Assembly: GCA_965213625.1 (NCBI GenBank)
Contig: CBDBZU010000004.1
Location: 3,520,001 to 3,584,000 of the forward strand
DNA length: 64,000 nt
Source of the DNA: a bacterium
GTDB taxonomy: Bacteria; UBA8248
Direction: 5' to 3'
Positions 5,831-20,954 of the stretch are shown here, one piece after another. Each line of letters opens with the position of its first letter. The stretch's first letter is position 1. Below the pieces are notes generated by a model. The model did no database searches. It saw only the letters and a program-made list of their open reading frames with translations, and had not been told where the DNA came from. The position numbers were made by a program, and so were the translations under genes.

Positions 5831-6082
5831 ATGAGAAGCGGCGATGAAATGTTGAAGCAGATTGTAGATAAGTCCGCCCTGGACGCGGATTTCAGGCAAC
5901 AGTTGCTCGCAGACCCGAAGTCGACCATCAGTCAGGAATTGGGTATTACGATCCCCGATTCGATGAATATCATGGTCCATGAGAGCGACATGCAGACGGT
6001 GCATCTGGCGTTGCCCCCTGATCCGAATATCACCGAGGAGCAACTCGAAGCCATCTCGGCCGGTCTCTGCTGCTGCTGGTAA
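5831..6082 (+). CDS. srpE: NHLP-leader (proteusin) RiPP precursor, core LCCCW (SrpE-like)
   Basis: Nitrile-hydratase-like leader (DADFRQQLLADPK...VHLALPP) ends in the double-glycine-type site ITEEQLEAISAG, followed by core LCCCW. Confidence 0.92.
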   Translation: MRSGDEMLKQIVDKSALDADFRQQLLADPKSTISQELGITIPDSMNIMVHESDMQTVHLALPPDPNITEEQLEAISAGLCCCW

Positions 6083-6205: not shown

Positions 6206-7324
6206 TTATGTGGAGACCGCTCCGGAAAGCACCATGTAAACATAGGCCTTGGCTTGCCTGAGCCGATTTCCGGAAATGACCAGTTTTATGTGGTGAATGC
6301 CGCGCAACATGAGAAACTGCCCGGTCCTGGCGAACAGAGTCGTCGGTTTCGAAACCCAATCGGCAAGCGCCTCAATCTTTTCCGGAACGACAAAGTCCTC
6401 ATGGCTCAGGGCGTCGAGAAAGGGGTCCCAATCGGTCAGGCCGTCGAGCCAGTAACGTGAATCTTTCGTATATCTCTGCTTGACGATGAGCGTCAGGCCG
6501 AGCGTCGGACCGACACCGTCCGCCTGCACGTCAACATTCGCTCCGGTTCTCACAATATCCGCGCGTTCCTTGAAGCGTGAAATCAAAGCGTCTACGGCCG
6601 AGAGCCGACCCGGCCAGCCAATGTTCTCGAGATAGGAACAAATATCCCCCTGTGATTTGAAGCCCATGATCGCCAGGCGGATTGTGCGTTCGCGAGAGGG
6701 GAATATCCCGAAAGAATCCAGGCGCGTGTCTTCCGGCTGCGCCAGGTAAACCCGTTCGGCGTTTTTCCGTTCAGCGGCTATCTTTTCCCAGCCGACGCAG
6801 GAAACGAGGGCGTCAACCACGACTCCGACATCGGTCTGGAGGCCGTCGCCACCGGATAACGTGCGTTCGTTGGGCCGCAGGAACATTCCCGGCAGCGAAT
6901 CTTTACTTCCCGGCGCCGAATCTATGTCATATTCCAGCATCAATTTACGTCCCACAATCTCTCGCAGAGGCGAGTCCTGGGCTTCCATTTCCCTGAACAG
7001 CCGCCTGACCGCTCTCGCAGTTTTATCCGCCTCGTCGGTCCGCGCCCGCTCCTCGAAAAAATCGCCTGACCGGTTTCCGCTCGCCAGCGAGACGCCGAAA
7101 TCCGCCGCCGGCCGACTGTCATGCAGAGGCAGTTCGAAGCCGAACGGCTGGGCGCCCATGGTAATGGGAAGTCGGCTCGCACGTTCCAGTATGCGCCCCC
7201 ACTCCCGCTCTCCGATAAGAGTCGGAGAAATTCTGCTTCGAAATTGCCCGAGCAATTCAGCCATGGTGCCGCCTTCTTGGACGAGGCGGTCCTGGGTAAG
7301 CGCGACTGCTTCGTCGATATCCAT
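6206..7324 (-). CDS. Uncharacterised RiPP-associated protein, candidate ABBA-type aromatic prenyltransferase
   Basis: 372 aa with a good RBS, last gene of the operon. Short strand-like motifs FGFE, LEYD, PGMFL and HHIKL..AKAYVY. The function is inferred. Confidence 0.55.
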   Translation of the reverse strand: MDIDEAVALTQDRLVQEGGTMAELLGQFRSRISPTLIGEREWGRILERASRLPITMGAQPFGFELPLHDSRPAADFGVSLASGNRSGDFFEERARTDEADKTARAVRRLFREMEAQDSPLREIVGRKLMLEYDIDSAPGSKDSLPGMFLRPNERTLSGGDGLQTDVGVVVDALVSCVGWEKIAAERKNAERVYLAQPEDTRLDSFGIFPSRERTIRLAIMGFKSQGDICSYLENIGWPGRLSAVDALISRFKERADIVRTGANVDVQADGVGPTLGLTLIVKQRYTKDSRYWLDGLTDWDPFLDALSHEDFVVPEKIEALADWVSKPTTLFARTGQFLMLRGIHHIKLVISGNRLRQAKAYVYMVLSGAVST

Positions 7325-7333
7325 ATTGCCTCC

Positions 7334-9688
7334 TTACGCGATCACGGGTGCGGGATTCAAATCGGCTTCGGCCAGGGAGCGCTTCAGGCGGCCCATGCCG
7401 ACAGGAACGTCGTACAGGCGCCCGGGCGCGAATCTTGGCCAAAAATGACGCATGCCCGGTACGATGACCCGCGCAACCGGCATACCGATGTCCGGCCGGG
7501 TCTGGTCCAGCACGAGGAACTCCATGCCCCTGGCTTCCACCAACGATCGGCAATGTTCCACATCCTCAAGCGTGTCCGCGGATTCGATCACCGGATACTG
7601 TGAGCCTTGCTTGAGCGGCGCGTCCGGCGCCGACGCCAGCCAGGAACAATCGGCGATTCGAGCTGTCTTCCACCACGTGAGCGCCAAGGGATCGTCGATC
7701 ATCGGCCGGCCGTCGCCCCTTCCGGGACGCGGCAGCCAGGTAAGACATTGGTTCAACTCGCAAATCGCGCGCAGGGCCGCCAGTCGCGGGTCGGCATGAG
7801 CGCCTGCGCCGTATATGATGTCCTCGGTTTCCGCGTCCGGTCTGCGCGAGAGCGCAACGAACGAAGGGATACCAATGTCGGAAGTAACGTCGAGCATCCA
7901 CACTTCCCGCTCGTAGCGACCATAATAATCCGCGGCCGATGCCAGGAATTCATCATCAAAACTGGAGAGATCGACCCCGGGCGCTCTCAGCCCGTTATAC
8001 CACCAGATGGCGAACGCATCGCGCTCGACCAGTTCATAGAAGCCTTGCAGGATGGCCTCCTCCAGGATGTTCCCTGCGGCGCAGCCGTTCGAGTCGGCAA
8101 TCAGTTCGGCATCTCCGCGCTGTTCGGCAGACATGCTGTAGAGCATCGACGTCGGCAGATAGCGATGCCGCCGCTGCGTGAACGACCACACGGGCGTCCA
8201 GTCGATTGCGGCATCGGGCTCGAGACGCGGCGGGACGATGTTGTACGGGTGGCCTTTCGCGTTGATCCTCTCCGCGTCGTCAAGCTGACCCTCGCTGAAA
8301 AGCTGCGCATCGTTGGGATGGATAGCCTCGTCTTCTGCGGCGAAGTCGACGAATCGCTTGCGGATGCGTATCTCGTCTCCGCAATATGCGCCCGAATAAC
8401 GCTCTAGCGCCTCGCATAGGGCGCTGGCCTCGGATTGTTCCCGCGTGCTGCCCTTGCCGGCGCTCTTGCTGCGCAGGCTGCGCCTGAGCGAACTCAGGCT
8501 CCGGCTTCTCGTGGCGGGATTGCTTCCGGCCCAATAGACGTGCAGCCAGGAATCGCTCTCGTCGGTAGTGCGCGTCAGCCAGGTGACGACCCCGCTGATC
8601 GGGCTCACCAAGTGGCGGTATTTCGTCAGGGTGGCTTCCGGCGTCACGGCCCGCGCACCACCGCTGTTGCGATGGGTTTTGGGACTCGATTTCAGGCGCA
8701 GCGGCGCAGGCTGCCGGTCCGGCCGGTACAACGCCTCGTCGCCACAGGCCGGGCACTGCGGGCGGCGCGTCACTGCGTGCTGCGAACTTGTGAACGAGCC
8801 GAGGTTCATCGCTATTGCCCTCTCGTGAATCGGGGCCGCCTCTTCCAGCACCAGCCATTTGACGATTTCGGCCGCTATCAGCCCGTACAAGGCTTCGAGC
8901 GCCGTCGGCTCCGCCGCAAACGGCTTGAAGGCGGCTTCCTCTCCGGCAACGCTACGCAGGAAATTGTGGACCTCCTTATGACTGCGCAGGCGGTGAACCA
9001 GACATTCCCAGCAGGGTCCTTGTCTATCCGCGCGGAAGACGGGGCCGAACAGCGCCTCCATGCCGTGCGGCCGCACCAGCGTCCACGGCGCTCTCGCCTC
9101 GAGGCGGCGCCGATTCACGTCTTCAAACCGTGCTTCGAGATAATCGTCGCAGACGATAACGGTGAGCCGTGGATCGCAGGCCGCCACACAGACGCCGCTC
9201 TCTTCCAGATGCCGGACGAGGCGGCCGTCGTCACCTTCGACCGCGATGCGCGATTCCGCCAGCCGCCCTTCGACCCAGCGGGGCGATGCGCCGAGCGAGG
9301 TCCAATAGGCCGCACGAGGTCGGTCCATGCCATGATCGGCGGAGACGACGTAGCCCCTGTCGGAGAGTGAAACAACCGCCGCATGAACGTTAGCGGCGGC
9401 ATGGCGGCCATCGAGGGCGGCGACAATCCCGGCAAGCGGGCGCCGGTCGCCCAGAAGCGGTAGCAGGTCGCAATACAGGCCGCCGTGCAGCAGGGTATCG
9501 AACGACTCGGAAACCAGCAGCGTCTGCTGCTCGTCAATTTCGTGGAACTGCAGGTGCGGGGTAAGCGCGGGGAACTCGACGAGGCCTTCGTCCGCTGGGG
9601 TCGTTTTCGTCAATATCCCGCGTCTTGGATTCATTTTCGTCTGCGACGTCTTGCGGGAATTCCGCGTCTGCTCAATCGGCGCCTTCAT
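7334..9688 (-). CDS. srpC: Fused E1-like/YcaO cyclodehydratase (TOMM type, SrpC-like)
   Basis: Zn sites GPCWECL and CPACG; YcaO motifs SAGKG, EALERYS, SNGCAAG and ELVERDA; Pro-rich C-terminus NPAPVIA. The likely start ATG 9688 overlaps the upstream stop (ATGA). Confidence 0.9.
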   Translation of the reverse strand: MKAPIEQTRNSRKTSQTKMNPRRGILTKTTPADEGLVEFPALTPHLQFHEIDEQQTLLVSESFDTLLHGGLYCDLLPLLGDRRPLAGIVAALDGRHAAANVHAAVVSLSDRGYVVSADHGMDRPRAAYWTSLGASPRWVEGRLAESRIAVEGDDGRLVRHLEESGVCVAACDPRLTVIVCDDYLEARFEDVNRRRLEARAPWTLVRPHGMEALFGPVFRADRQGPCWECLVHRLRSHKEVHNFLRSVAGEEAAFKPFAAEPTALEALYGLIAAEIVKWLVLEEAAPIHERAIAMNLGSFTSSQHAVTRRPQCPACGDEALYRPDRQPAPLRLKSSPKTHRNSGGARAVTPEATLTKYRHLVSPISGVVTWLTRTTDESDSWLHVYWAGSNPATRSRSLSSLRRSLRSKSAGKGSTREQSEASALCEALERYSGAYCGDEIRIRKRFVDFAAEDEAIHPNDAQLFSEGQLDDAERINAKGHPYNIVPPRLEPDAAIDWTPVWSFTQRRHRYLPTSMLYSMSAEQRGDAELIADSNGCAAGNILEEAILQGFYELVERDAFAIWWYNGLRAPGVDLSSFDDEFLASAADYYGRYEREVWMLDVTSDIGIPSFVALSRRPDAETEDIIYGAGAHADPRLAALRAICELNQCLTWLPRPGRGDGRPMIDDPLALTWWKTARIADCSWLASAPDAPLKQGSQYPVIESADTLEDVEHCRSLVEARGMEFLVLDQTRPDIGMPVARVIVPGMRHFWPRFAPGRLYDVPVGMGRLKRSLAEADLNPAPVIA

Positions 9689-12081
9689 GCACGCGAAACG
9701 AGCGTATCGATGCGGGCGGCGGCGCTGGATGCGGTTTCGGCGACCGCCGACGCCAGCGCATCGAAATCCTCCTGACCGCAAGCGTTCGCAACAAGAGATT
9801 TGACCTTCGGCCCTGCCGCCGTCGCGTCGAACCCTTCCTCGCCGACAAGGCGCATGACGCCCTGTAAATCCCGCCACATGGCCGCGGCTTGCGCCAGCGG
9901 CTCGGCGCCTGCGGCTTCGAACACCGCCGCGGCGGTCGGCGCCGGATCGTCGAAGTCGCTTCCGGCGCGCACCAACTGCAGGTAACGCGCGACCTTCTCG
10001 ACATCGTTCAGCCCGCCGCGCATCCGGGCGTATGCGGACACGCCTGTTTCGGCAGGGTCTTCCGTCCGCTCGCTCAACCGGGCGAGCAAAGACTCGTTCG
10101 CCCTGCATTCGGCCAGTACCCGGCGCCGCGCCTCATCGAAGCGACCTTCGATATCGGAACCGCCATACTCGAACACGCAACGCGCCCTGGTGAGGGCGGG
10201 CACTTCGCCTGAAGTCGAATCTCCATAATGTTCGGCCAGTTCGGAAAGCGGCAACTCAAGAATGGAATTCGAGCCGGGCGGGACCGGAGAGAACAACAGG
10301 CTGTCCTGCGCCAGGTCGGTCAGGGCATCTCGGAAACTTTGGCACACTTGTTCGTTTTTGCCGGACCGCAGACCGTCATGGACGAGCAGCATATCGATTC
10401 CAACACCGGGATAAGCTTCCCGGCTGGCCAGATCGCCCAGGAAAACGGCAGCGACTCCACCCACACTCAGCATTCCGAACCGGTCGACATAATCCGCGAC
10501 CACGGAGGCGAGCACGGTCGCAACCGATGCTTCGGCGAGATTCGACAGCGCCGTTCTCGCTTCCGCTGGCAACAGGTTTCCGCGCATCACGTGCATACCG
10601 ATCTGAAACGCCTTGTCGTTCGACCAGTTTCGCACGATTTCAGCGGTCTCCCTCGCATCGGCCACCGGCAGTTCGGCGACCAGACCCTTCAATTCCTGAA
10701 CGTCCATTTCGTAAGTCCAGTAGACTCTCGCAAGCCCGCGCCGCGCAATCGATTCGTATTCATCATCCGGCCCGAACCCCTTCGGCAGGTCGAGGTCGAG
10801 GAATTCCTGGTCTTGCAGGTTGTCCAGAAGTTCCGGGTTCCGCTCAACCCGTTTGGCAAGCCTCGGGGCGGCGCCGAAGATTTCGAGTATCGCGTCAAAG
10901 GCGTCGGGCCGCGCCGCGGCAATCGGGCTGTCGTAGGGGCCCCAGTCGTCAACCTCCGGATAGAAATGTTCGCGCCATTGGTCCACCAGCGGGTCCATCT
11001 TCTCGAACCAGCGCTTGGGCCGCAGCACGATGTTCATCATGTCGGCGTAGGTTCCCGGCAACTCCGGCGACTCATCGAGGCCGCTGACCTGCAGCAGCGG
11101 ATACTGGCGCGACGCCACCGCATGATGATCCGCATGGCGCTGCATATTGAAAAACATCCAGTTGCTGAACTTCCAGTCCGCGCTCCAGGAATGGCGCGGC
11201 ATCGCCTTTTCCCAGCGACCGTTGTCCAGACGGACCCGGCGCAGGCCGTAGTGTTGAAAGTAGTTGCTCATCTTCATCGAAAAGACGCAGGACAGACCGA
11301 GGAAGACGAAGACGGGAACGGCCCAGATCCCGCCCATCCAGTAAACCAGTCCGTACCAGAACGCGACGCCGACGACGTAGCGCCAGAACGGATTGTCGTA
11401 ATGCCACACGGGCAAACGCCGCCGCGCCAAGCGTTCTCTTGCGACTTCCCAGGAATGGACGAGGTTGCTGACAACTTCCTTGGGTAGATATCTCCAGAAA
11501 CTTTCCCCCTTCGGAGCGGACCCGACGTCATACGGCGTGCCGACCAGGGCATGGTGAATATAGACGTGCTCCGTGGCGTATTGCGGATAGGAGACGGTGG
11601 CGAGCAGGAATTCGCCCACCCGGCGTTCCCAGGTCGTGCGCCGGTGAATCATTTCGTGGCCGACTACGAATACGGCTTGCGCTTCCATCGTCAGGATGAT
11701 CGCCAGGAGCACGCCTTCCCAGATGGAGAATTGATCCGCCGCCAGGATTTGCCACATACCGAAAATGAGCGTCGGCGGCCACAGAAACGACCACGACCAG
11801 ACCGGCAGATTGTGCCAGAACAGGCGGTGCTCCGACGTATTCGCCGGGTCCATGTTTTGTCCGTCCCGACCCAGCACCTTATCAAGCGACCCCGCAACAC
11901 TCATAAAAACGAGCGGCGGCAGCAACCACCAGCCTCCATTGTACGCGCCGAGAAGAATCAGCGGAAAAACGACCAATGGCAGATAATGCGGAAGAGCGGT
12001 CAGAATGGACGGCTCGATACGCTGAACGGCTTCGGCGTCGCCTAGACCGGAGCCACCACTTGCTACGGGACTTTGTGGCAT
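9685..12081 (-). CDS. AlkB-type membrane di-iron monooxygenase/desaturase fused to a degenerate GlnE-like nucleotidyltransferase domain
   Basis: His boxes HEMIHR, EHVYIHH, NYFQHYGL and QRHADHH. The C-terminal half has GlnE-like ALSNLAEA, GDLASRE..GIDMLLVHD and GGLNDVE..YLQL. Confidence 0.8.
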   Translation of the reverse strand: MPQSPVASGGSGLGDAEAVQRIEPSILTALPHYLPLVVFPLILLGAYNGGWWLLPPLVFMSVAGSLDKVLGRDGQNMDPANTSEHRLFWHNLPVWSWSFLWPPTLIFGMWQILAADQFSIWEGVLLAIILTMEAQAVFVVGHEMIHRRTTWERRVGEFLLATVSYPQYATEHVYIHHALVGTPYDVGSAPKGESFWRYLPKEVVSNLVHSWEVARERLARRRLPVWHYDNPFWRYVVGVAFWYGLVYWMGGIWAVPVFVFLGLSCVFSMKMSNYFQHYGLRRVRLDNGRWEKAMPRHSWSADWKFSNWMFFNMQRHADHHAVASRQYPLLQVSGLDESPELPGTYADMMNIVLRPKRWFEKMDPLVDQWREHFYPEVDDWGPYDSPIAAARPDAFDAILEIFGAAPRLAKRVERNPELLDNLQDQEFLDLDLPKGFGPDDEYESIARRGLARVYWTYEMDVQELKGLVAELPVADARETAEIVRNWSNDKAFQIGMHVMRGNLLPAEARTALSNLAEASVATVLASVVADYVDRFGMLSVGGVAAVFLGDLASREAYPGVGIDMLLVHDGLRSGKNEQVCQSFRDALTDLAQDSLLFSPVPPGSNSILELPLSELAEHYGDSTSGEVPALTRARCVFEYGGSDIEGRFDEARRRVLAECRANESLLARLSERTEDPAETGVSAYARMRGGLNDVEKVARYLQLVRAGSDFDDPAPTAAAVFEAAGAEPLAQAAAMWRDLQGVMRLVGEEGFDATAAGPKVKSLVANACGQEDFDALASAVAETASSAAARIDTLVSRA

Positions 12082-12163: not shown

Positions 12164-13465
12164 TCAGGTCCGCAAGATTGCGAGGAGACGTTCGAGAGCT
12201 TCGATACAAAACGCCGTGGTCACGGATTCTGAGCCATGTCCTATCCGCCCTACCGTACCCCACTTCAACGTTTGGTCGCCAAACGCGAGAAGCTCCGGCC
12301 AGCTACCGTCCTCACGCTGCGAACCCGTGAACCTCTCCACCTCGCGTTTCGCGTCGACGCCGTCGAGGCGTCCAACATGATGGAGCGCCGAGACGGCCTG
12401 AGCCGTTTGGAGGATGTTGCCGAATTCCCCTTCCTCGTCCCGCAAGCCCAGGATGCGCTCCGCTAGTATCGGGCGCAGCCGGTCGAGAGCGGGCCGTGCG
12501 CGAATCATGGCGCGGGCGGTCGCATAGCAGATCGCGACCTCGTCGGGATACCATTTCGACGATCCCTCGAGATTGCCTTCGGTTATCAAGGCTTCCAGCC
12601 ACCTTTGGGCATCCCTGGTTTCTGGACAGTCGCCGAGATAGGCAATGACGTTCGCATTGACTACAGGGTCGGCTTCGATACGAAAGCGCGATACCACATC
12701 GGGTTCGTCGTCTTCGAGAACCCAGGTCATGAAGCGGCCTTCCTCGTCGCGATTCGCCAGTATCTGCGGAACGTTCCTCCCCAGTAAAATCCAGAGGTGG
12801 CCTCCAATCACGAGTGAACACAGTGCGGTGCTGTCGAGATCCTGGGGCAGGTGGCGATAATAGCGCCACAATCCGGGATATTCGATAGTGTCGACGAGAT
12901 ACGCCCTTGTCGCAGCGCATATGGCCCTGGCGCGCGCTTCCTCGCAACATTCGAGAGCCAGGGCGCAGAAAGCCGAAATAAAGGGAGGTCTTTCGAAATG
13001 CCTCGGTATATCCGGATCGCCCAAGTTGAACCGGATACAATGCCAGGCTCCGTTCTCGTCTATCGTGGATTCCAGGAAACCAAGACCGCGGCGGATGCTT
13101 TCTCCACCCGCTTTCGCCAGCGCCCCGGTGGTCGCGGCGTTCTTCGGGGTTCTCTCCCCTTGAAGTTTTGGCGGACGAAGGGGCGGCGCGGGGTCGTGCA
13201 TCGTTTTGCGAAGAAACTCGAGCGATTCCGCGCCGGTTTTCGCCTCCTCCCGTTCGGCCTCGGTGAATTTGCTGCGCGGCGGAAGGACGAGGTGCGTCGT
13301 GGTATAGGTTTCTTCGTGTACGTGAATCTCATGGTCTTCGGCCATCGACACGCCAAATTCCGCTTCGATGGTCTCTTTGGGCTTGGCGAGAAGACGTTCC
13401 CGGAATTCGTAGTCGCCGCCAGCTCGCGATATGAGGGAATCAACCAGGCCAAAAGGCTTCTTCAT
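12164..13465 (-). CDS. NHLP-leader-like domain fused to a prenyltransferase/class II terpene cyclase-like alpha-barrel
   Basis: The first ~80 aa align by eye with the precursor leader. QW-like repeats GLGFLESTIDENGAW and GSQREDGSW, plus PQDLDSTA resembling DxDDTA. Confidence 0.8.
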   Translation of the reverse strand: MKKPFGLVDSLISRAGGDYEFRERLLAKPKETIEAEFGVSMAEDHEIHVHEETYTTTHLVLPPRSKFTEAEREEAKTGAESLEFLRKTMHDPAPPLRPPKLQGERTPKNAATTGALAKAGGESIRRGLGFLESTIDENGAWHCIRFNLGDPDIPRHFERPPFISAFCALALECCEEARARAICAATRAYLVDTIEYPGLWRYYRHLPQDLDSTALCSLVIGGHLWILLGRNVPQILANRDEEGRFMTWVLEDDEPDVVSRFRIEADPVVNANVIAYLGDCPETRDAQRWLEALITEGNLEGSSKWYPDEVAICYATARAMIRARPALDRLRPILAERILGLRDEEGEFGNILQTAQAVSALHHVGRLDGVDAKREVERFTGSQREDGSWPELLAFGDQTLKWGTVGRIGHGSESVTTAFCIEALERLLAILRT

Positions 13466-13540
13466 CGATATCTACTCCATATTCGCGGGCCTTGGCCGAA
13501 CATGCATTTTTTCCGCCGAGTTATCGTCTCCATATTCGGA

Positions 13541-16483
13541 TCAAGCGATTTGCCTTTTTATCAATTCCTTGAATACCCCGTCCACCTCCTTGAGTTCGCT
13601 GAAGGAACCGCTTTGTACGACTTTCCCGGCTTGCAGCACGTAGATGCGGTCGGCCTGTTCCAGCGTGGACAGGCGGTGGGCAATGACGAGGCGGGTGGAA
13701 GTCAGGGCGGCAAGGTTTTGCATTATCTTGGCCTGGCTTTCGTTATCCAGCCAGTTCGTCGCCTCGTCCAGCAACATGATTCGCGGGCTGCCGATCACCG
13801 AGCGGGCGATGGTGATGCGCTGGCTCTCGCCGCCCGACAGGACAGACCCGCTGGTGCCCACCATGGTCATCATGCCCATGGGCATGTCCTTGATTTGGGC
13901 TTCAACTTCGGCGGTACGGACCGCCGACCATACTTCATCGATCGTCACCGCATCATGGTGACTGACCAGATTGTCCCAGAGATCCTGTGGATGGAGCCCG
14001 ACGGATTGCGGCACAGCGCCAATTTTCTTGCGCACCTGTTTCAGATTCAGGTGCTTCAGGTCGCGGCCGTCGTAATACACCGCGCCGGCGGCCGGCAAGT
14101 CGATACCGAGCGCGAGGCGGAACAGGGTGCTCTTCCCTGCGCCGGACTCACCGGCAATCGCGACGAATTCGCCGGGACGGGCGTGAATCGAGACGTCGTC
14201 GAGAATCAACGGACCGTCGGGATCGTAGCGGAATGAAATGCGGTCGAACAGTATTTCACCGCCCAGGTATTCAACCGGCTCTCCTTCCGTCACGGTTTCA
14301 GGGACTGCGGAGAGCAGCGGACGCATCTGCTGGAACGCCGGACGCATGGCGGCAATTGCGCCGAAGGACTCGCCGAGCCGGGCGATGGCGGACTGGAAAA
14401 CGATAAAGACCGTGTAAACGACGAGAAAATCGCCGACCGGAATGTTTCGGTCTTCGACCGCCACCACCGAAAAAAGCAGCACCCCGCCGGCAAGAAAAGG
14501 GAGCGCGGCGCCGAATGCGCGCGAATGTCCCTCGAGCGCGCCCAGTTCTATCTCCGCGCGCTTCTGCTCACGATAGCCCCTCGCCCAGATGGCGTAAGCC
14601 GACCCTTCCGCATTATCCATTCGCAGCTTGGAGATGCCCCCCACGATCTGGAACAGTCGGCCGGCTACGCGACGCGCTGCGCTGAGCATCCGCCCATAAG
14701 GTGAAATCTGGCGCCACCCGAGGACTACGGTGACCAGCAGGGAAGCCAGGCTGAAGACGAGGGTGATGACGCCGAGGATGGCGTCGTACAAAAAAATGAC
14801 GCCAAAAACCGGAATCAGAAATATAATCGACAGAAAGCTGTTGGCGACGACTCCCTGCAAGCCATCGCGAAGATTCTGGAATGTCATTCCCGACATGGCC
14901 AGGTCGCCGGATGGATGGCGGTGCAGAATGCTTGGCGGAAGGCGCATGAGACGGTCCCAGAAGGCGGCTTCGAGCCGAGATGCCGAGCGCCCCTCGAGCC
15001 GCATCATCGCCGTGCTTTGAAGCAGGTGCAGCAGCGCGCCGAGAAGGCCGAACGCCGCTAACGCCACGGCAACGGTATAGAGCGTTCCTATGCTTCCGCC
15101 CGCCAATATCTGATTCGCAACGAACCCGAGCGCGAGCGCCGGCAGCAGATTGAGCAGACCGTATGGAAGCCCGGAAATCACCAGCCGCGCCAAATCCGAA
15201 GCCGACCCGTTCAGCGCGATTCCCAGCAGGTCCGCCGGTTTCACGTCCCTCGAGGGCAATGGCCGATAGAACATCCACGCCTTCTCCCCCAGCGCATCCG
15301 CGCGGTCCGCCGTTACCCGGACACTGCGTTTGCTGACCGGGTCGATTTCACGGTATCGCCCGAACATTCCCGGCAGCAGCGCCACGGGCCGGCCGTCCTC
15401 GGCGCGAAACGCCAACATCGCGTTGCTGTCGCCGCGCCACCAGCCGCCCTCGGCATTGAATCGCACACGCCGGGCGCGTACGCCCGACGCATCGAGAACC
15501 TCGACGAGGCCGACCGGAGAACCGGAAAGCCCCGAGCGCGCCGGTATCTTGAAATCGATTCCTTCATGGCGGCCGATGTGTTGCAAGGCATCCGCCAGCG
15601 CCGTGTCCTCGATACCGGCATCCCGGTCAATCGGAAGGTCATAGATATTGAAGAGCCGCTGCCGCGCGGCTTTTTCGGCCGTGCGGCGGCTGGTTGTCCG
15701 CGCGCGTTCGAGATTGACGTCATCGACCACGACCAGTCGGCGGTTCAGGCGTTCCAGGGAGAAAGCAACCGCGTGAAACGAGGCGAGCGCCGGCAGCAGC
15801 ATACCTTCCTCCGCCAGTGTCTCGGTAGATTTGCCCGTCAGCGTCGCCTCGTCGAACAAGGTGAGCCAGCTTGTGCGCGTCAGCGGAACGAGAGCCTCGT
15901 GTGAGCCGCTCGCCTCCGCAATTTCCGCCGAGTCGATAATACCCATGAACAGGCTCGCGCCGAGCGGCGGTTCGGATACCCATACAACACCGCGCCGTAC
16001 GGATAGCGTACATGGAGCCGGGGTCTGCGTCAGACCGGGTTCGGCCAGCGCGGTCGGACGCGGAAGGGGGCTTGCAAAACGCGAGAGTGTTTCCGTAATG
16101 GCGATCAGCCAGGTATCGGCCTGTTCCGCCAATTCCGATGGGTGAACCTGGGACAGCAAAGAAGCCGGCAGACGTCTCAATTTGGTGCCCGGCAGTCCTT
16201 TGGCGATAATACGGAGCGTATTGTCCTCGCCATTGTCCCGTTGGTCCGGCGCCACGCCCGGCAGCAACCAGCCCGATTCCCGGCGCAGCAGATGCTGCGG
16301 CGCCGCCTGCTCCACCCCGTCTTTGAATTCGACCAGGAACAGATTAACGGCGCCCTGTTCGATGAACCAGACGCTGTCCGGGTCGTCGAGCTTGGCCGGC
16401 AGGTTGCCGGCGCAGGGAACGGACGCGCCGAAGCGAGCGGCGAGTTCGGCGATTGACGTGTATTCCGGCTTTGAATGCTGCAT
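13541..16483 (-). CDS. NHLM bacteriocin-system ABC transporter (permease/ATP-binding)
   Basis: cNMP-like N-terminus, transmembrane domain, GESGAGKST, LSGGESQR and LLDEAT. Confidence 0.9.
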   Translation of the reverse strand: MQHSKPEYTSIAELAARFGASVPCAGNLPAKLDDPDSVWFIEQGAVNLFLVEFKDGVEQAAPQHLLRRESGWLLPGVAPDQRDNGEDNTLRIIAKGLPGTKLRRLPASLLSQVHPSELAEQADTWLIAITETLSRFASPLPRPTALAEPGLTQTPAPCTLSVRRGVVWVSEPPLGASLFMGIIDSAEIAEASGSHEALVPLTRTSWLTLFDEATLTGKSTETLAEEGMLLPALASFHAVAFSLERLNRRLVVVDDVNLERARTTSRRTAEKAARQRLFNIYDLPIDRDAGIEDTALADALQHIGRHEGIDFKIPARSGLSGSPVGLVEVLDASGVRARRVRFNAEGGWWRGDSNAMLAFRAEDGRPVALLPGMFGRYREIDPVSKRSVRVTADRADALGEKAWMFYRPLPSRDVKPADLLGIALNGSASDLARLVISGLPYGLLNLLPALALGFVANQILAGGSIGTLYTVAVALAAFGLLGALLHLLQSTAMMRLEGRSASRLEAAFWDRLMRLPPSILHRHPSGDLAMSGMTFQNLRDGLQGVVANSFLSIIFLIPVFGVIFLYDAILGVITLVFSLASLLVTVVLGWRQISPYGRMLSAARRVAGRLFQIVGGISKLRMDNAEGSAYAIWARGYREQKRAEIELGALEGHSRAFGAALPFLAGGVLLFSVVAVEDRNIPVGDFLVVYTVFIVFQSAIARLGESFGAIAAMRPAFQQMRPLLSAVPETVTEGEPVEYLGGEILFDRISFRYDPDGPLILDDVSIHARPGEFVAIAGESGAGKSTLFRLALGIDLPAAGAVYYDGRDLKHLNLKQVRKKIGAVPQSVGLHPQDLWDNLVSHHDAVTIDEVWSAVRTAEVEAQIKDMPMGMMTMVGTSGSVLSGGESQRITIARSVIGSPRIMLLDEATNWLDNESQAKIMQNLAALTSTRLVIAHRLSTLEQADRIYVLQAGKVVQSGSFSELKEVDGVFKELIKRQIA

Positions 16484-18693
16484 CAGCCCGACATGACTTG
16501 CTTGTAATAGGCGCCATCCCGATCCGCGAACAACTCGTCGTGCGTGCCGCGTTGCACCGTGACGCCCTTGTCGAGCACGATGATTTCATCGCAATCCCGC
16601 ACGGTGCTCAGCCGGTGCGCCACGATCAGGCAGGTGACGCCGCGACGCCGCAGGGCGTCATCGACATCTTCTTCCGTTGCCGCATCGAGTGCGCTGGTGG
16701 CCTCGTCCAGAATGAGCACCGTCGGATTGCCCACCAACGCACGGGCGATTTCCAGACGTTGCCGCTGGCCGCCGCTGAAATTCGCCCCGCCTTCTTCGAC
16801 GAGGGTCGAATATCCCTGTGCTCTATGCAGGATTTCGTCATGGATCCGGGCATCTCGCGTTGCGGCGAAGAGGACCTCATCCGGAACGGCCGGGTTCCAC
16901 AGCGTGATATTGTCGCGCAGGGACGCAGAGAAGAGCACGACCTCCTGATCCACCATGGATATGGACTGCCGCAGCACTTCCTCCGGAATCTGATTCCGCA
17001 GGTGTCCATCGAAAAGGATTTCGCCCGACCAGGGCTGGTAGACGCCCGAAACCAGGCGCGCCAGGGTCGACTTGCCGGAACCGCTTGGACCGACCACGGC
17101 GACGCGCTGCCCCGGATTGATCACGAGGTTGAAGTCCCTTATCAAAGGAGGCCTGCTTTTGTTGAAACCGAATGTGACGTCTCGCAGTTCGAGCTGGCCT
17201 GCAAGCTGGAGCCGGCCGTTGAACGTGGGGATTGACTCCGATTCCGGGTTCCTGCGGCTGAAGACGGGATCCTCATCGGTGCTGGAGATGTCCTCGAATC
17301 GCTGCATATCGGTTTCGAGCGCCTGACGGGTTTCGGCGAATTCCAAAAAACGCCGGATGGGAGCCAGAAACATCTCCGCCAGGATATAGAACCCGACCAG
17401 CGTCCCCAGCGTCATGTCTCCGGTCATGACGAAACCGCCCCCGATGCCGAGAATCGCCGCGCTTCGGAGCGCGTCGATCAGACCCGGAAGCGAGGTATTG
17501 ACGGAGCCCAGTTCGGAGTAGAGTTGGCGCGCACGCAGTTCACGCGCCTGTTGACCGCTCCAGCGCGAAAAAAACCGGTCATCCGCACCCGTCATACGCA
17601 GATTGTCCGCATGACTCAACATCTGCATGCCGAGGCCAATCAGCAATCCCTGTTCACGCCTCATCGCCTGACTGCGCACCGCCCGTAGGGCGTTGAGAAA
17701 GTGGGCCAGCACTCCGTGCAGCAGGGCCAGAAAAAGCACGATCAGCGTGAGCAGGATATCGTAGGCGAACATCGCTACGAGCAACACCGCGCTCATCGCC
17801 ATATCGATAATGAGCACAAGAAACTGATCCGCCAGATTCCTGGCGATTCTGTCGGTGGACGAGACCCTATCGGTCAGATCCCCCGCCAGCCTGTGCTCAA
17901 AAAACTCCACCGGCAACCGCAGCAGCCGTGACATGCCGCGACTGTAGCCGACCACCGATACCCGGACTGCGAGCCGCTTGAGGAAGCGGTGCTTGAGCAA
18001 GGACAGGACGTATACCAGGACGCCGCCGCCAAGCAAGGCAATCACCAACCCGCCCCAGGACCCGTGTTTTTCCAGAACATCGTCGACGAAAACACCGAGA
18101 GATACGGGAATTATCAGCGTCAACAACGTTAACATGAGTCCGCAGGCGATCACCCCGGTAAGCAAACTCCATGATCCGGGGAGCAAGGCGCCCAATTGCC
18201 TGAACAAGTCGGGCCGCTCGCCCCCGGGACTGAAATCGGCGCCGCGCTTGAAGCGAAGCGCAATTCCGCTGTAGTCCTTGTTGAACTCTTCGGCGGAAAT
18301 CCTGCGCCGGCCCGTGGATGGGTCGTTGAGATAGAAATAACGGCCATCGAAACCTTCGAGGACGACGAAATGGCTGAATTGCCAGAACAAAATCAAAGGC
18401 AACTCCAGCATTTTCAGTTGATCGGCGAGTAAGCTGAACCCGCTGCATTCGAGACCATAGTGTCTCGAGGCGCGCAAGATGCTTGCGGCGCTGCTGCCGT
18501 CCCGGCTCACCTCGCATTTTTCGCGCAATTCGGTAAGCGACACCCACCGCCCGAAATAGGCCAGTATGATGCCGAGACAGGCGGCGCCACATTCCGACGC
18601 ATGCATCTGCAACAGAATCGGCGTGGTCACCTTCCGTTTCGATACGTCCGAAGAGGCCTTGTCCCCGGCGTCTTTGGAAGCGGCCGTCGGCAT
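16483..18693 (-). CDS. NHLM C39 peptidase-containing ABC transporter (leader cleavage and export)
   Basis: C39 catalytic residues in QMHASECGAACL, FSHFVV and YLNDP; Walker A GPSGSGKST; signature FSGGQRQR. Confidence 0.92.
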   Translation of the reverse strand: MPTAASKDAGDKASSDVSKRKVTTPILLQMHASECGAACLGIILAYFGRWVSLTELREKCEVSRDGSSAASILRASRHYGLECSGFSLLADQLKMLELPLILFWQFSHFVVLEGFDGRYFYLNDPSTGRRRISAEEFNKDYSGIALRFKRGADFSPGGERPDLFRQLGALLPGSWSLLTGVIACGLMLTLLTLIIPVSLGVFVDDVLEKHGSWGGLVIALLGGGVLVYVLSLLKHRFLKRLAVRVSVVGYSRGMSRLLRLPVEFFEHRLAGDLTDRVSSTDRIARNLADQFLVLIIDMAMSAVLLVAMFAYDILLTLIVLFLALLHGVLAHFLNALRAVRSQAMRREQGLLIGLGMQMLSHADNLRMTGADDRFFSRWSGQQARELRARQLYSELGSVNTSLPGLIDALRSAAILGIGGGFVMTGDMTLGTLVGFYILAEMFLAPIRRFLEFAETRQALETDMQRFEDISSTDEDPVFSRRNPESESIPTFNGRLQLAGQLELRDVTFGFNKSRPPLIRDFNLVINPGQRVAVVGPSGSGKSTLARLVSGVYQPWSGEILFDGHLRNQIPEEVLRQSISMVDQEVVLFSASLRDNITLWNPAVPDEVLFAATRDARIHDEILHRAQGYSTLVEEGGANFSGGQRQRLEIARALVGNPTVLILDEATSALDAATEEDVDDALRRRGVTCLIVAHRLSTVRDCDEIIVLDKGVTVQRGTHDELFADRDGAYYKQVMSG

Positions 18694-18694
18694 C

Positions 18695-19246
18695 TTATGA
18701 TCGCCTCATTCGAAACAGCGCGATCGGAGATTGCCTGCCAAGCTCGAAGACAATCCGGCATTTCCCGCCCGCCAGGGAATTCAAATCCATACCTTCTTCG
18801 AGCGCGATATCGATGCGGCGCACGGACATCGGCGCCTTGGACTCAAGCGCCGCCAGCCCCCCGGAGAAGGGCACGGCGGAAATCGCCCTGACCTTTCCGA
18901 CAAGCGCGCCTGTTTTTCCATCGGCCGCATGCGGCTCGATCACCACCGGCATCCCGGCCTCGATATGTGAAGCGATATCGCTCTCGACCCAGACGAGGGC
19001 CCGTACGGACCGGCCGCCCCCGATCGGGTTTTCGCCTTGCTCGACCACTACGCCGTCCACCGCGAAACTACGAGCGACGCTGCCGAAGAAAAGCCATACC
19101 GAGAGGATGCACACCAAGAGAGCGATTGCGGCGACAATCAGACGCTCCCGAGGCGTTGAAATCGTCAGCAACCGGTCAAGTTGCTCGCGTTCTTCCTTTG
19201 CTTCGGCGACAATATTATGAAAAGAATCGAATGGATTATTGAACAC
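18695..19246 (-). CDS. Short NHLM secretion (HlyD-like) accessory protein
   Basis: EQLDRLLTISTPR, one transmembrane helix, GKVRAIS and C-terminal SPIALF. At 183 aa it seems to lack the usual coiled-coil hairpin. Confidence 0.7.
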   Translation of the reverse strand: MFNNPFDSFHNIVAEAKEEREQLDRLLTISTPRERLIVAAIALLVCILSVWLFFGSVARSFAVDGVVVEQGENPIGGGRSVRALVWVESDIASHIEAGMPVVIEPHAADGKTGALVGKVRAISAVPFSGGLAALESKAPMSVRRIDIALEEGMDLNSLAGGKCRIVFELGRQSPIALFRMRRS

Positions 19247-19664: not shown

Positions 19665-20954
19665 TTACGAACCCGGCGCCTGACAGCCCAGCCCCTGGGA
19701 CATCTGGGCGTAACTGGTGAGCGGAAGCGCGCACATCCGCTCCCAGTCCGATTTGTCGATGACCGTCTGGTTTATCAGTTCGAGCATTTCGTCGAATTTA
19801 CGAAGCGCGTCGCAACCCACCACATCGGGGTCCGCCGCCTTGCGGTGTCGAGGCCAGGCTTTGTCTCTCGCATGGCGCCAGAATCTGCTGTCGTACCTGG
19901 AGCCGCAGGAATAGTGCCAACCGACGAACAGGCTGTAGCACAGCACGTTGTTGATGAGGAACCGATTGACCGCCGGCGCGTCGCGCTCGCGGTGTTCTAT
20001 CGGCCGGTTGAGACGCATATAGAGAACCGTCCCGACCTGCAACTGGGCGGACACGATCGCCGTTGCTTCGAGCGGCTCGATGAAGCTTGCCGCGTTGCCG
20101 ACGCGGGCCACCACGCCATCGTATATCCGGCGGTGGACGAAATTGGGAAACGGAATGACGGCGCGTTGCTCGAATTCCGATACGCCGTCGGTTTCGAGGA
20201 AAGCGTCGAAGTCCGATTCCACTTCCTCGAGGCCGGAAATGTCGCGGTTGAAGATGTACCCGTAGGAGGTATGTGATGCAAGCGGAATAACGAATATCCA
20301 ACCGTACGGACGCGCAACCGCCCGGGTATAGGTGTGTTGGAGAACCAGCCCGTCCCGCTCTTCTTCGACGGTTGCCGGACAGCGGCGGATGACGGCCGTA
20401 TTGGTGGGGATGAAGGAAACATCGATGTGCATTTCGGGGTCGAGTTCTGCGGGAAAGCCCCGGGCATCAAAGACCAAATCGTAGCGCTCCGCCGGCAGGC
20501 CCTCGAATTCCACTCGCGCGCCATCCTCCACCCTCGTGATACTAGTTACTTTCGCGTCGATGCGGCGCGCGCGGTTGCTTTCGCGAAGCAGGTCCGTGAG
20601 CAAGTCGACGGACAGATGGTAGGCATAGGACACCTGCTGCGGCGTGAAATAGTGGGTGAAGTCCTGATTGTGCCGGCCCCATCCCTCGAATGCGACACCA
20701 TACTTGCGCGTTCCTTTCAGGCGCCGCTGGACGGTTTCATGGGGCAAACGGGTCAGTTTGCGCAAATCCTGCACGAGGCTCGGCCAACTGCCTTCGCCCA
20801 CGCCGATGACGGGAATGCGCGAGTCATAGATGTGGTGCAGCTCGTGGTCGCTCTCGGGTAGAAGACGAGTCACATTGGCGGCCGCAAGGGACCCTGCGGT
20901 TCCTTGCCCGAGGACCGCGATTTTCCGTAAAGATTCTGCGCCCGGCTGTATCAT
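19665..20954 (-). CDS. srpI: Flavin-dependent tryptophan halogenase (peptidyl-Trp brominase, SrpI-like)
   Basis: GQGTAG, IGVGEGS, catalytic Lys in GTRKYGV, GWIFVIP (WxWxIP variant) and FIEPLEATA. Confidence 0.88.
   Translation of the reverse strand: MIQPGAESLRKIAVLGQGTAGSLAAANVTRLLPESDHELHHIYDSRIPVIGVGEGSWPSLVQDLRKLTRLPHETVQRRLKGTRKYGVAFEGWGRHNQDFTHYFTPQQVSYAYHLSVDLLTDLLRESNRARRIDAKVTSITRVEDGARVEFEGLPAERYDLVFDARGFPAELDPEMHIDVSFIPTNTAVIRRCPATVEEERDGLVLQHTYTRAVARPYGWIFVIPLASHTSYGYIFNRDISGLEEVESDFDAFLETDGVSEFEQRAVIPFPNFVHRRIYDGVVARVGNAASFIEPLEATAIVSAQLQVGTVLYMRLNRPIEHRERDAPAVNRFLINNVLCYSLFVGWHYSCGSRYDSRFWRHARDKAWPRHRKAADPDVVGCDALRKFDEMLELINQTVIDKSDWERMCALPLTSYAQMSQGLGCQAPGS

Follow-up and report, generated by a model that had tools for sequence, protein, structure and literature searches.

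The srp proteusin cluster has been described from high-microbial-abundance sponges, where it often occurs in dozens of copies and is highly transcribed; neither its final product nor its function has been reported so far (bioRxiv 10.1101/2023.06.09.544420; PMC9426513). Its precursor gene is given as 252 bp long, with the sequences LCCCW and ITEEQL (bioRxiv 10.1101/2023.06.09.544420). In such peptides the NHLP leader carries a recognition code shortly before the cleavage site, consisting of the motif LxxxxL and a hydrophobic residue at position -4. Binding by YcaO RREs requires both leucines of LxxxxL plus helix alpha1, and the YcaO enzyme MprC requires the leucines of the motif (PMC12455567). 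Binding by the brominase SrpI likewise rests primarily on these residues (PMC12455567; PMC10858898), and for the C39 protease LahT the exchange of Leu at -7 or Val at -4 to Lys or Asp abolishes or strongly impairs cleavage (PMC6363468).

The window analyzed here, a stretch of 64,000 nucleotides, contains an NHLP precursor with the core LCCCW, a YcaO cyclodehydratase, a tryptophan halogenase and NHLP exporters, and the locus is thus the published sponge srp proteusin cluster (Table 1). Relatives of the enzyme studied here are encoded in 165 stretches of species-representative genomes, of which 80 syntenic loci were kept; 63 precursor ORFs could be recovered from these, and 62 of them have the core LCCCW. 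Within the cluster we recognised no gene for an isoprenoid donor.

Table 1. Features of the srp locus and of the fusion ORF, with positions in the window.
Feature	Position	Strand	Remark
Precursor, SrpE type: 78-aa NHLP leader and core LCCCW	5831..6082	+	bioRxiv 10.1101/2023.06.09.544420
372-aa ORF, predicted ABBA-fold aromatic (tryptophan-type) prenyltransferase	6206..7324	-	proposed partner of the cyclase
wHTH/RRE, E1-like and YcaO cyclodehydratase	7334..10108	-	
Fatty-acid-desaturase-like membrane domain fused to GlnE-like domain	9685..12081	-	
Whole fusion ORF, 433 aa: NHLP-like module, tether, class II terpene-cyclase-like barrel	12164..13465	-	
Residues 113-433, single-domain alpha/alpha barrel, class II terpene cyclase type	12167..13129	-	
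QxxxGxW (Q383..W389)	12299..12319	-	sole canonical QW motif
D209-L-D211-S-T, DxD(D/T/S)T general-acid motif	12827..12841	-	D211 invariant in the family
Residues 99-112, variable tether	13130..13171	-	mean pairwise identity 0.28, barrel 0.76
Residues 79-98, conserved junction A-x-S-L-E-F-L-R-K-T-x-x-D-P-A-P-P	13172..13231	-	in core-peptide position
Residues 5-78, NHLP / nitrile-hydratase-alpha-like leader fold	13232..13453	-	three helices, two strands, PP motif
Former cleavage region within residues 5-78: E-8 R-7 .. A-4 .. T-2 G-1		-	
GGAG, likely ribosome-binding site	13475..13478	-	9 nt 5' of ATG; read from sequence
NHLP export ABC transporter without peptidase domain (TIGR03797)	13541..16483	-	~290 extra N-terminal residues
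NHLP export ABC transporter with C39 peptidase domain (TIGR03796)	16483..18693	-	
Short HlyD-like protein, 183 aa	18695..19246	-	
Flavin-dependent tryptophan halogenase, SrpI type	19665..20954	-	

Note that the ORF with the YcaO domain is over-called at its 5' end, its likely start lying near 9688, where it overlaps the stop codon of the preceding gene as seen in other loci, and that ORFs of HlyD-like size (~180-230 aa, a few of them called longer) are found again in most of the 80 loci.

The original prediction that the N-terminus of the 433-residue ORF aligns without gaps to the precursor leader was borne out: BLASTP against the 83-residue precursor pairs residues 7-78 of both proteins with 26 of 72 positions identical (36%) and 0 gaps (E 2e-16). 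It also matches the NHLP leader family TIGR03793 with an E value of 1.4e-11 and 44.0 bits, short of the curated cut-off of 50.9, PF02979 with 27.7 bits (cut-off 27.2), the solved NHLP leader 8tb1 (E 2.6e-6) and nitrile hydratase alpha chains (E 6e-7). Instead of the short substrate core that follows the leader in the NHLP family, this protein continues with a 20-residue junction, the tether and a barrel of 321 residues. Median BLASTP identities of the module are 33-41% to the srp leaders and 40-43% to the leaders of sister clusters, values too close for a donor to be named, and its about equal distance from both groups (median 33-43%) marks it as an old paralogue rather than a recent copy. With Pfam, NCBIfam and Foldseek we detected neither an RRE fold nor an RRE family in the fusion enzyme.

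An AF2 model of the enzyme has a pLDDT of 85.1, with nearly all 10-residue blocks of residues 113-433 above 85. Confidence is low for residues 45-110, where the block 91-100 reaches a pLDDT of 79 and exceeds its neighbours. A Foldseek search with this model returned 44 PDB matches at E <=0.001, headed by drimenol synthase (9m7f, E 3e-11), MstE and small squalene-hopene cyclases, all pointing to an alpha/alpha barrel of the beta/gamma type. The family profile matches drimenol synthase (E 1.9e-24) with the DxD motif aligned, and fold search and profile thus agree with the predicted class II terpene-cyclase-like barrel in residues 113-433. The score of the enzyme against PF13243 is 19.3 bits at a cut-off of 26.1, and no NCBIfam cyclase family matched it. 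In the alignments DLDST (209-213) takes the place of DDLDTT in the drimenol synthase AsDMS and of DVDDTA in squalene-hopene cyclase. The middle aspartate D211 is invariant, D209 is found in at least 90% of rows, and the third aspartate is absent. DLDST had been noted as a substitute for DxDDT; the motif is indeed present, but it is not a defect, given that drimenol synthase is active with DxDTT and depends on its middle Asp (PMC9128629). The QW repeats, which had been listed in the plural, come down to one canonical QxxxGxW with invariant Q383 and G387 and with W389 in at least 90% of rows, the remaining repeats being degenerate. In the predicted structure residues 113-433 therefore form one class II terpene cyclase domain, in which the catalytic DxD is preserved.

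The most obvious discrepancy between the N-terminal module and a genuine leader is found at the positions read by the processing enzymes. In all 84 fused enzymes position -7 is Arg and position -4 is Ala, where the precursors have Leu/Met and Ile/Val, respectively, and Glu at -8, Gly at -1 and the junction residues Ser +3 and Leu +7 are invariant as well. Position -2 is mostly Thr (73/84; three enzymes each have Arg or Ala), and -12 is F/L/Y in 76 of 84, so that the module reads F/L/Y-xxxx-R instead of LxxxxL at -12 to -7 and has no hydrophobic residue at -4 ahead of the double-Gly-type site. The predicted change of the C39 recognition positions is thus present in every copy, and the leader copy is very probably uncleavable, as had been proposed, judging from the invariant R-7 and A-4 and the predominant Thr at -2. 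As the lost code is the one read by YcaO RREs, by the brominase SrpI and by C39 proteases, cleavage or RRE binding of the fused module appears unlikely from its sequence.

We found 1096 homologs of the fusion enzyme; among the 120 listed most are 433 aa in length and 75-100% identical. Four further divergent fused members of 52-59% identity also reside in LCCCW clusters. The 84 loci examined span many phyla and all have an intact fusion, which rules out for this copy that two genes were merely joined here by a lost stop codon. Mean pairwise identity is 0.62 for the helices, 0.71 for the strands, 0.70 for residues 62-78, 0.77 for the junction and 0.76 for the barrel, but 0.28 for the tether; the N-terminal module is about as conserved as the catalytic one. 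In the tree all 15 fused rows form one clade (SH-aLRT 100), nested in a clade of 45 rows (support 100) whose other members are unfused cyclases from NHLP clusters. The fusion has a single origin. At several of the unfused loci (L086, L091, L128; in L095 by overlapping ORF calls) the cyclase gene is immediately preceded by an NHLP gene on the same strand. A weak word-based search for other proteins with an NHLP part, using the precursor as query against longer proteins, gave 10 matches, all apparently over-called precursor ORFs. One sponge-metagenome RNA run covered 4% of the sampled words and yielded only one contig of 176 nt at positions 12616-12783 (95-99% alike), too little to demonstrate transcription of the fusion as one unit.

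The 372-residue ORF of the same cluster was predicted by AF2 with a pLDDT of 89.3. Ranks 1-49 listed by Foldseek are all ABBA prenyltransferases (best E 1.1e-5, TM 0.38-0.54), led by the tryptophan enzymes 6-DMATS and 5-DMATS, and features from a protein language model place it in the Trp_DMAT cluster (0.91). It matched neither PF11991, PF11468 nor any other Pfam or NCBIfam family, and its family profile found no prenyltransferase among PDB sequences. We therefore predict, on the basis of the modelled fold, that it is an ABBA tryptophan prenyltransferase. Its linkage to the cyclase extends to fused proteins: three of the best 150 cyclase representatives (P0200, P0219 and P0243) are prenyltransferase-cyclase fusions (E <=5e-29), and hhalign gave a probability of 99.1 for P0200. 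In a further protein, P0195, the barrel is fused to a weak Trp_DMAT match (E 1.9e-4); the prenyltransferase family profile did not match P0195.

Loci of the unfused sister cyclases were collected with a 5-row alignment. These enzymes are 38-49% identical to the fusion enzyme and are encoded in NHLP-precursor clusters, but have no NHLP domain of their own, so that the domain is not needed for the core reaction of the family. Most of the 28 unfused loci from sponge symbionts (L081-L108) combine a cyclase, this type of prenyltransferase, NHLP precursors and NHLP exporters, and no YcaO or halogenase matched within the stretches examined. No RRE was detected among the 7 neighbouring ORFs scanned near the sister cyclases. 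Trp is present in 45 of the 46 distinct cores from the unfused loci, is the terminal residue in 24 of 46 and makes up 8.4% of the core residues.

The reading that we consider the more probable one, with some reserve, is that the prenyltransferase and the cyclase act as a pair on the C-terminal Trp of the core, and that the NHLP module is a docking domain that is not itself a substrate. The fusion ORF would then be an intact, conserved two-module tailoring enzyme of the srp proteusin pathway. The 372-residue prenyltransferase would attach an isoprenoid chain to the C-terminal Trp of LCCCW, and the cyclase module would subsequently cyclise the Trp-bound chain, with D211 as the presumed proton donor to its terminal olefin. 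Prenylation and cyclisation on the core would make the mature product a terpenoid-decorated, thiazoline-containing, brominated peptide. Residues 5-98 would derive from an NHLP precursor gene that immediately preceded the cyclase gene and was fused to it once, and the module would have been retained because its folded nucleus still does something. With R-7, A-4 and T-2 in place of the hydrophobic LxxxxL/-4 code and the small residue at -2, it may have become blind to the readers of leaders, and would therefore be neither cleaved nor processed, without competing with the true substrate. Its most likely role is to dock the cyclase, by way of a variable tether of ~14 residues, onto a further pathway component, with the exporter, the YcaO enzyme, the prenyltransferase and the precursor as candidates.

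The original prediction had the module pair with the precursor leader or with the RRE of the YcaO enzyme, bring the cyclase to its substrate and so replace an RRE. That the folded nucleus of the module is conserved and that the cyclase has no RRE of its own fits this idea, as does the predicted complex of enzyme and precursor with a median score of 0.52 (runs 0.52, 0.45 and 0.57; best control 0.00), which lends weak support, with no interface reported. In these runs, made with custom alignments, at least 90% of contacts agree and the partner has a pLDDT of at least 70. Among solved complexes 58 of 80 attained the mark used for such predictions, as did 2 of 110 mismatched pairs; note that only 7 of the 80 solved complexes, together with both passing mismatches, did so at scores of <=0.60. 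Binding to the YcaO RRE is hard to reconcile with the Arg that replaces the second leucine of LxxxxL in 84 of 84 enzymes, where RRE binding needs both leucines and alpha1 (PMC12455567). The proposed hetero-oligomer of two leaders is made less likely by the weak complex prediction, by the monomeric state that SAXS indicated for a related NHLP at up to 523 uM (PMC10858898) and by a mirror-tree analysis that gave no co-variation of the module with the precursor leader (r 0.17, partial -0.05). Nor is the replacement of an RRE supported by the unfused sisters, which occur in NHLP clusters without such a domain and without an RRE among the 7 neighbouring ORFs scanned. We regard the pairing with leader or RRE as unlikely.

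Alternatively, the fused leader could permanently occupy or activate a leader site of the barrel, so that the cyclase accepts a leaderless or cleaved core. Nature would then have arrived at what was engineered in the leader fusions of LctM and LynD, which reportedly act in this manner. The conserved junction 79-98 followed by a flexible tether would permit the necessary back-folding, and the elevated pLDDT of the block 91-100 is in line with it. As a rule, however, the C39 transporter removes the leader in the course of export (PMC6363468), and a leaderless core would hence not meet a cytoplasmic enzyme; moreover, the unfused relatives give no sign of needing a fused leader. An activating leader in cis therefore seems quite improbable.

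A different objection concerns the chemistry itself. The barrel might not be a terpene cyclase at all but a toroid for peptide binding, for chaperoning or for acid-catalysed thiazoline or Trp chemistry, and the 372-aa ORF no prenyltransferase. The subthreshold Pfam squalene-cyclase matches, the missing third Asp of DxDD, the lack of an isoprenoid gene in the cluster and a prenyltransferase assignment made by fold only would all agree with this. Against it stand the profile match to drimenol synthase with its aligned catalytic motif and invariant D211, the independent fusions of the barrel to a prenyltransferase-like domain, including the weak Trp_DMAT fusion P0195, and the Trp-rich cores of the sister clusters, and we hold a non-cyclase function to be rather doubtful.

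The module might also target the enzyme to the NHLP ABC exporter, either as secreted cargo or parked at the gate. In most loci the fusion gene immediately follows the peptidase-less exporter gene, and NHLP leaders and NHLP exporters are known to co-occur by phylogenetic profiling (PMC2887384). In the mirror-tree comparison of the module with nine cluster proteins the adjacent exporter genes scored highest (r 0.68-0.76, partial 0.31-0.37), against r 0.35 and partial -0.04 for the prenyltransferase. Linkage of the genes explains the exporter correlation equally well, and as linkage predicts, the values are just as high for transporter parts not expected to touch the leader; the analysis thus identifies no partner. 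In addition, R-7, A-4 and a Thr or even Arg at -2 speak against C39 cleavage (PMC6363468), a folded 36-kDa barrel would be an unusual cargo, and the Nitrospirales loci retain the fusion with no exporter genes within the 20 kb examined. An export tag of this kind has little probability in our estimate. That the module is a leftover of gene fusion without present function, as its absence from the unfused relatives might suggest, is highly improbable, since its conservation across phyla equals that of the barrel, in contrast to the drifting tether (0.62-0.77 against 0.28), since six positions flanking the former cleavage site never vary among the 84 enzymes, and since members of only 52% identity still keep it.

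With MstE (6sbb), AsDMS (9mhs, 9m7f) and the squalene-hopene cyclases 8pak and 8paj the fusion enzyme shares the alpha/alpha barrel, the aligned DxD(D/T)T and a QW motif. It differs from them by its low identity of 15-20%, its DxDST, the lack of a HAD domain, the N-terminal leader-like domain and its location in a RiPP cluster; its presumed substrate is a prenylated peptide rather than the free isoprenoid diphosphate or meroterpenoid of the known cyclases. The 372-aa ORF shares the predicted fold of the ABBA tryptophan prenyltransferases 6-DMATS, 5-DMATS, PriB, CymD and FgaPT2, but has no detectable membership in their sequence families and would act on a leader-bearing peptide. The N-terminal module resembles the leaders of the proteusins SrpE and MprE7 (PDB 8tb1) in sequence and predicted secondary structure; unlike them it leads into an enzyme instead of a core and has invariant Arg and Ala in place of LxxxxL and the hydrophobic -4 residue.

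Covalent tethering of a leader to a RiPP tailoring enzyme by a flexible linker has reportedly been engineered for LctM and LynD. The srp arrangement resembles these constructs, but is natural, ancient and conserved, and its leader has lost the motif bound by known leader readers. RRE (PqqD-like) domains of RiPP enzymes are likewise accessory domains on a catalytic domain, presumably for recruitment; they bind leaders, however, whereas the module described here is itself a leader homologue. Borosin-type fusions also combine precursor-derived sequence and tailoring enzyme in one polypeptide, and their structural likeness to the NHLP helical bundle has been mentioned (PMC10858898), but there the fused part is the substrate core, while the srp fusion has retained the leader part and the core is gone.

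In the literature searched we found no published fusion of an NHLP leader to a terpene cyclase, no proteusin with a squalene-hopene cyclase, and no RiPP case with a class II terpene cyclase and a prenyltransferase or with a naturally leader-fused enzyme. The available texts of PMC10858898, PMC10286304, PMC12537861, PMC12426817 and bioRxiv 2023.06.09.544420 contain no srp gene names beyond SrpE and SrpI, and those of the later srp and sponge papers searched for such words contain no mention of terpene, squalene, prenyl or fusion; the founding srp paper (JACS 2021) and the supplements may name or test the ORF. A further preprint (bioRxiv 2026.08.03.742642) excluded RiPP clusters.

If our reading is correct, this would be the first terpene cyclase to act in a RiPP pathway, and the prenyltransferase and terpene-cyclase pair in srp is a concrete and testable prediction for its missing chemistry. 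Beyond srp, the same pair indicates a broader family of Trp-cored NHLP peptides. We put forward, more tentatively than the local assignment, that srp and this larger sister group may be terpenoid-peptide hybrids in which a new ABBA peptide-tryptophan prenyltransferase and a single-domain class II terpene cyclase place a cyclised isoprenoid on the C-terminal Trp, and that the srp branch may have turned a blinded leader (R-7, A-4) into a docking handle that joins late tailoring to the export or modification machinery. The purpose of the folded part of large leaders is under study with proteusin brominase and YcaO enzymes (PMC10858898, PMC12455567, PMC12537861), and a fused, recognition-dead leader offers a natural experiment on this question; leader-tethered biocatalysts could also be designed with it as a guide. 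The degenerate copy of the guide sequence on a terpene-cyclase-like enzyme, in a cluster found widely among sponge bacteria, is thus a hint of a terpene step that has so far escaped notice and of an uncommon wiring of the pathway.

The fused enzyme begins with a module related to the leader of the precursor. [quoted passage not shown] Against TIGR03793 (NHLP) it reaches E 1.4e-11 and 44.0 bits, under the curated cut-off of 50.9. In the AlphaFold2 model (pLDDT 85.1) three helices (5-37) and two strands (48-60) are predicted, the chain is ill-defined up to approximately residue 110, and a confidently modeled barrel follows (113-433).

A Foldseek search of this model against the PDB returned class II terpene cyclases as top matches, including drimenol synthase AsDMS (E 3e-11), the Actinoplanes prenylcyclase 6ij1, the monodomain cyclase MstE and small squalene-hopene cyclases. 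The class II terpene-cyclase-like barrel that had been proposed is thus borne out, also by the family profile, which matches AsDMS (E 1.9e-24) and aligns D209-L-D211-S-T to DDLDTT of AsDMS and DVDDTA of squalene-hopene cyclase. W200, D211, G243, N272, Q383 and G387 are invariant in 65 fused and unfused relatives, and D209 is found in at least 90% of these rows. Note that AsDMS is active with DxDTT and depends on the middle aspartate D333 (PMC9128629); DLDST is therefore one of the normal forms of the motif rather than a defect.

Genes of the srp locus, and a nearby transposase, in the window
Feature	Position	Strand	Remarks
Trp halogenase	19665-20954	-	
HlyD-like protein	18695-19246	-	183 aa; family model (421 positions) matched at residues 21-71 alone
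ABC exporter with C39 peptidase	16483-18693	-	TIGR03796
ABC exporter without peptidase	13541-16483	-	TIGR03797
Fused enzyme (target ORF)	12164-13465	-	433 aa
Desaturase-like/GlnE-like fusion	9685-12081	-	
RRE-E1-YcaO cyclodehydratase	7334 to about 9688	-	as listed 7334-10108, 924 aa
372-aa ORF	6206-7324	-	no Pfam or NCBIfam family
NHLP precursor	5831-6082	+	83 aa, C-terminus LCCCW; opposite strand
DDE transposase	4456-5628	-	PF01609, E 4.6e-13

The locus is the published srp (sponge-derived RiPP proteusin) cluster, for which a preprint (bioRxiv 10.1101/2023.06.09.544420) describes a 252-bp precursor gene, an LCCCW core, an ITEEQL motif, YcaO and halogenase neighbours, a distribution across several phyla and a highly transcribed precursor. 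ORF calls and Pfam/NCBIfam matches place the target ORF in a co-directional gene row from the halogenase through the 372-aa ORF, and a GGAG is read 9 nt 5' of its ATG. As listed, the YcaO ORF runs about 420 nt into the gene upstream; since other loci show an overlap of 4 nt with the stop of that gene (about 784 aa), the true start probably lies near 9688. Most of 80 related loci have an ORF of a size similar to that of the HlyD-like one (about 180-230 aa, in a few cases called longer), so that the short protein is a conserved form and not a fragment. Some 290 N-terminal residues of the peptidase-free exporter extend beyond the TIGR03797 model without a Pfam match and are a candidate leader-binding region. 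The membrane fatty-acid-desaturase-like domain (9685-12081) joined to a GlnE-like (adenylyltransferase-type) domain is kept in most srp loci, at times relocated or inverted. The transposase, separated by about 200 bp from the gene of the precursor, fits mobility of the cluster across phyla.

A search of 5.8 billion proteins yielded 1096 homologs; the 120 listed share 75-100% identity and in most cases have a length of 433 aa, with source names that include Nitrospinae, Nitrospira, Deltaproteobacteria and Gemmatimonadetes. A relative is encoded in 165 stretches (contigs, one genome per species), of which 80 loci were kept; they share a common gene order with the target cluster, with local rearrangements, and 63 of the 80 contain a precursor ORF within the stretch retrieved, ending in LCCCW in 62. 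Four further, more divergent fused members, 52-59% identical, come from Paracoccaceae, with an LCCCW core wherever the C-terminus of the precursor was captured.

Across 84 fused enzymes mean pairwise identity is 0.62 in the helices, 0.71 in the strands, 0.70 in residues 62-78, 0.77 in the junction (79-98) and 0.76 in the barrel. The N-module is thus conserved about as strongly as the barrel; residues 99-112, at 0.28, drift as expected of a tether. This conservation makes it extremely improbable that the module is a relic, and the fusion, intact in 84 of 84 loci, refutes a lost stop codon as its source in this copy. In a tree of 93 barrel sequences the 15 fused rows all group in a single clade (SH-aLRT 100), nested in a 45-row clade (support 100) whose remainder are unfused cyclases. 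Branching within the fused clade is out of step with taxonomy, which indicates horizontal transfer. The organism's own genome holds two fused-gene copies, 100% identical and about 2 Mb apart (C4:1526396-1527694 and C4:3532167-3533465). In this genome, seen at these positions and in L162-L166, precursor genes of the srp type number at least four, three with LCCCW and one with LSCCW, and a separate sister-type precursor adjoins a prenyltransferase-like ORF. The module plausibly stems from an NHLP gene directly upstream of a cyclase gene, an arrangement seen in the unfused loci L086, L091 and L128, and in L095 by overlapping ORF calls. It is about equidistant from srp leaders and sister-cluster leaders, which argues that the fusion is old.

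All 84 fused enzymes carry Glu at -8, Arg at -7, Ala at -4 and Gly at -1 relative to the leader cleavage site, so that the predicted changes at the C39 positions hold throughout; at position -2, 73 of them have Thr and 3 have Arg. In the precursors, -12 is I/L/M, -7 is L/M, -4 is I/V and -2/-1 is Ala-Gly. The YcaO MprC requires both leucines of LxxxxL and helix alpha1 of the NHLP (PMC12455567), the brominase SrpI relies primarily on the two leucines without contacting the folded nucleus (PMC12455567; PMC10858898), and L-7K/D and V-4K/D variants are uncleaved or poorly cleaved by the C39 protease LahT (PMC6363468). Three kinds of leader reader thus use precisely the hydrophobic positions that are lost in the fused leader, which is therefore probably uncleavable, a well-founded part of the original prediction, and with equally good grounds probably bound neither by the brominase nor by the YcaO RRE, one of the two partners that had been suggested.

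Beyond these observations the proposed interpretation stands in part only. A replacement of an RRE by the fusion is not supported, since unfused sister cyclases manage without an NHLP domain and none of seven neighbouring ORFs scanned in their clusters is an RRE. The precursor leader as partner draws weak support from complex prediction, which scored enzyme and precursor at 0.52 against 0.00 for the best control, without an interface, in a range (0.60 or below) that held 7 of 80 solved complexes and both mismatches that passed among 110 mismatched pairs. Against it, the distance matrix of the module correlates near zero with that of the precursor leader, and SAXS shows a related NHLP to be a monomer (PMC10858898). 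The correlation is highest with the adjacent exporter genes, for which linkage could account. With its recognition code lost and its tether drifting, the module is consistent with a docking domain barred from acting as substrate or competitor.

The nearest unfused barrels share 38-49% identity and belong to further clusters of sponge symbionts. Most of these contain homologs of the 372-aa ORF, NHLP precursors, often several, and NHLP exporters; YcaO or halogenase matches were absent from the stretches fetched. These loci (L081-L108) hold arrays in which NHLP precursor genes number as many as about ten, with Trp-rich cores mostly ending in Trp (e.g. L091:183-16854, L095:4603-16919), several prenyltransferase-like paralogues and one or two unfused cyclases. 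Trp occurs in 45 of 46 distinct parsed cores, is C-terminal in 24 and makes up 8.4% of residues; LCCCW likewise ends in Trp. A YcaO gene directly follows an unfused barrel gene in a cyanobacterial and a Rhizobium MAG (L113:42-3390 and L117:7959-11278), so a YcaO beside a cyclase of this family is not always tied to the NHLP fusion.

The AlphaFold2 model of the 372-aa ORF (pLDDT 89.3) matched exclusively ABBA aromatic prenyltransferases among the Foldseek matches listed (ranks 1-49), led by the tryptophan enzymes 6-DMATS and 5-DMATS (best E 1.1e-5, TM 0.38-0.54), and protein-language-model features assign it to the Trp_DMAT cluster (0.91). An ABBA tryptophan-prenyltransferase fold is predicted with high confidence. 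In three of the best 150 barrel-family representatives (P0200, P0219, P0243), which come from other organisms, a domain of this type is fused N-terminally to the barrel (E 5e-29 or better; hhalign probability 99.1 with P0200). The barrel is joined to other N-terminal domains in P0188 (648 aa), P0195 (698 aa) and P0182 (454 aa), namely an Asp-rich DDxxD-like one without family match, a weak Trp_DMAT match (P0195, E 1.9e-4) and DUF2332.

The NHLP leader fold, the monodomain class II cyclase and the ABBA prenyltransferase are each of known kind, and the srp cluster itself is already published. The literature searched contained neither a RiPP pathway with a class II terpene cyclase nor the Trp-cored sister clusters; it likewise yielded no natural leader-homologue::enzyme fusion and no prenyltransferase assignment of the 372-aa ORF, on both of which the JACS 2021 srp paper and published supplements may bear. 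In the srp cluster, no gene for an isoprenoid donor could be recognised. Given the predicted ABBA fold, the domain fusions and the co-occurrence, the genes are most simply read as a pair in which the ABBA enzyme would put a prenyl group on the (C-terminal) Trp of the core, and the class II cyclase would then cyclise the prenyl chain.
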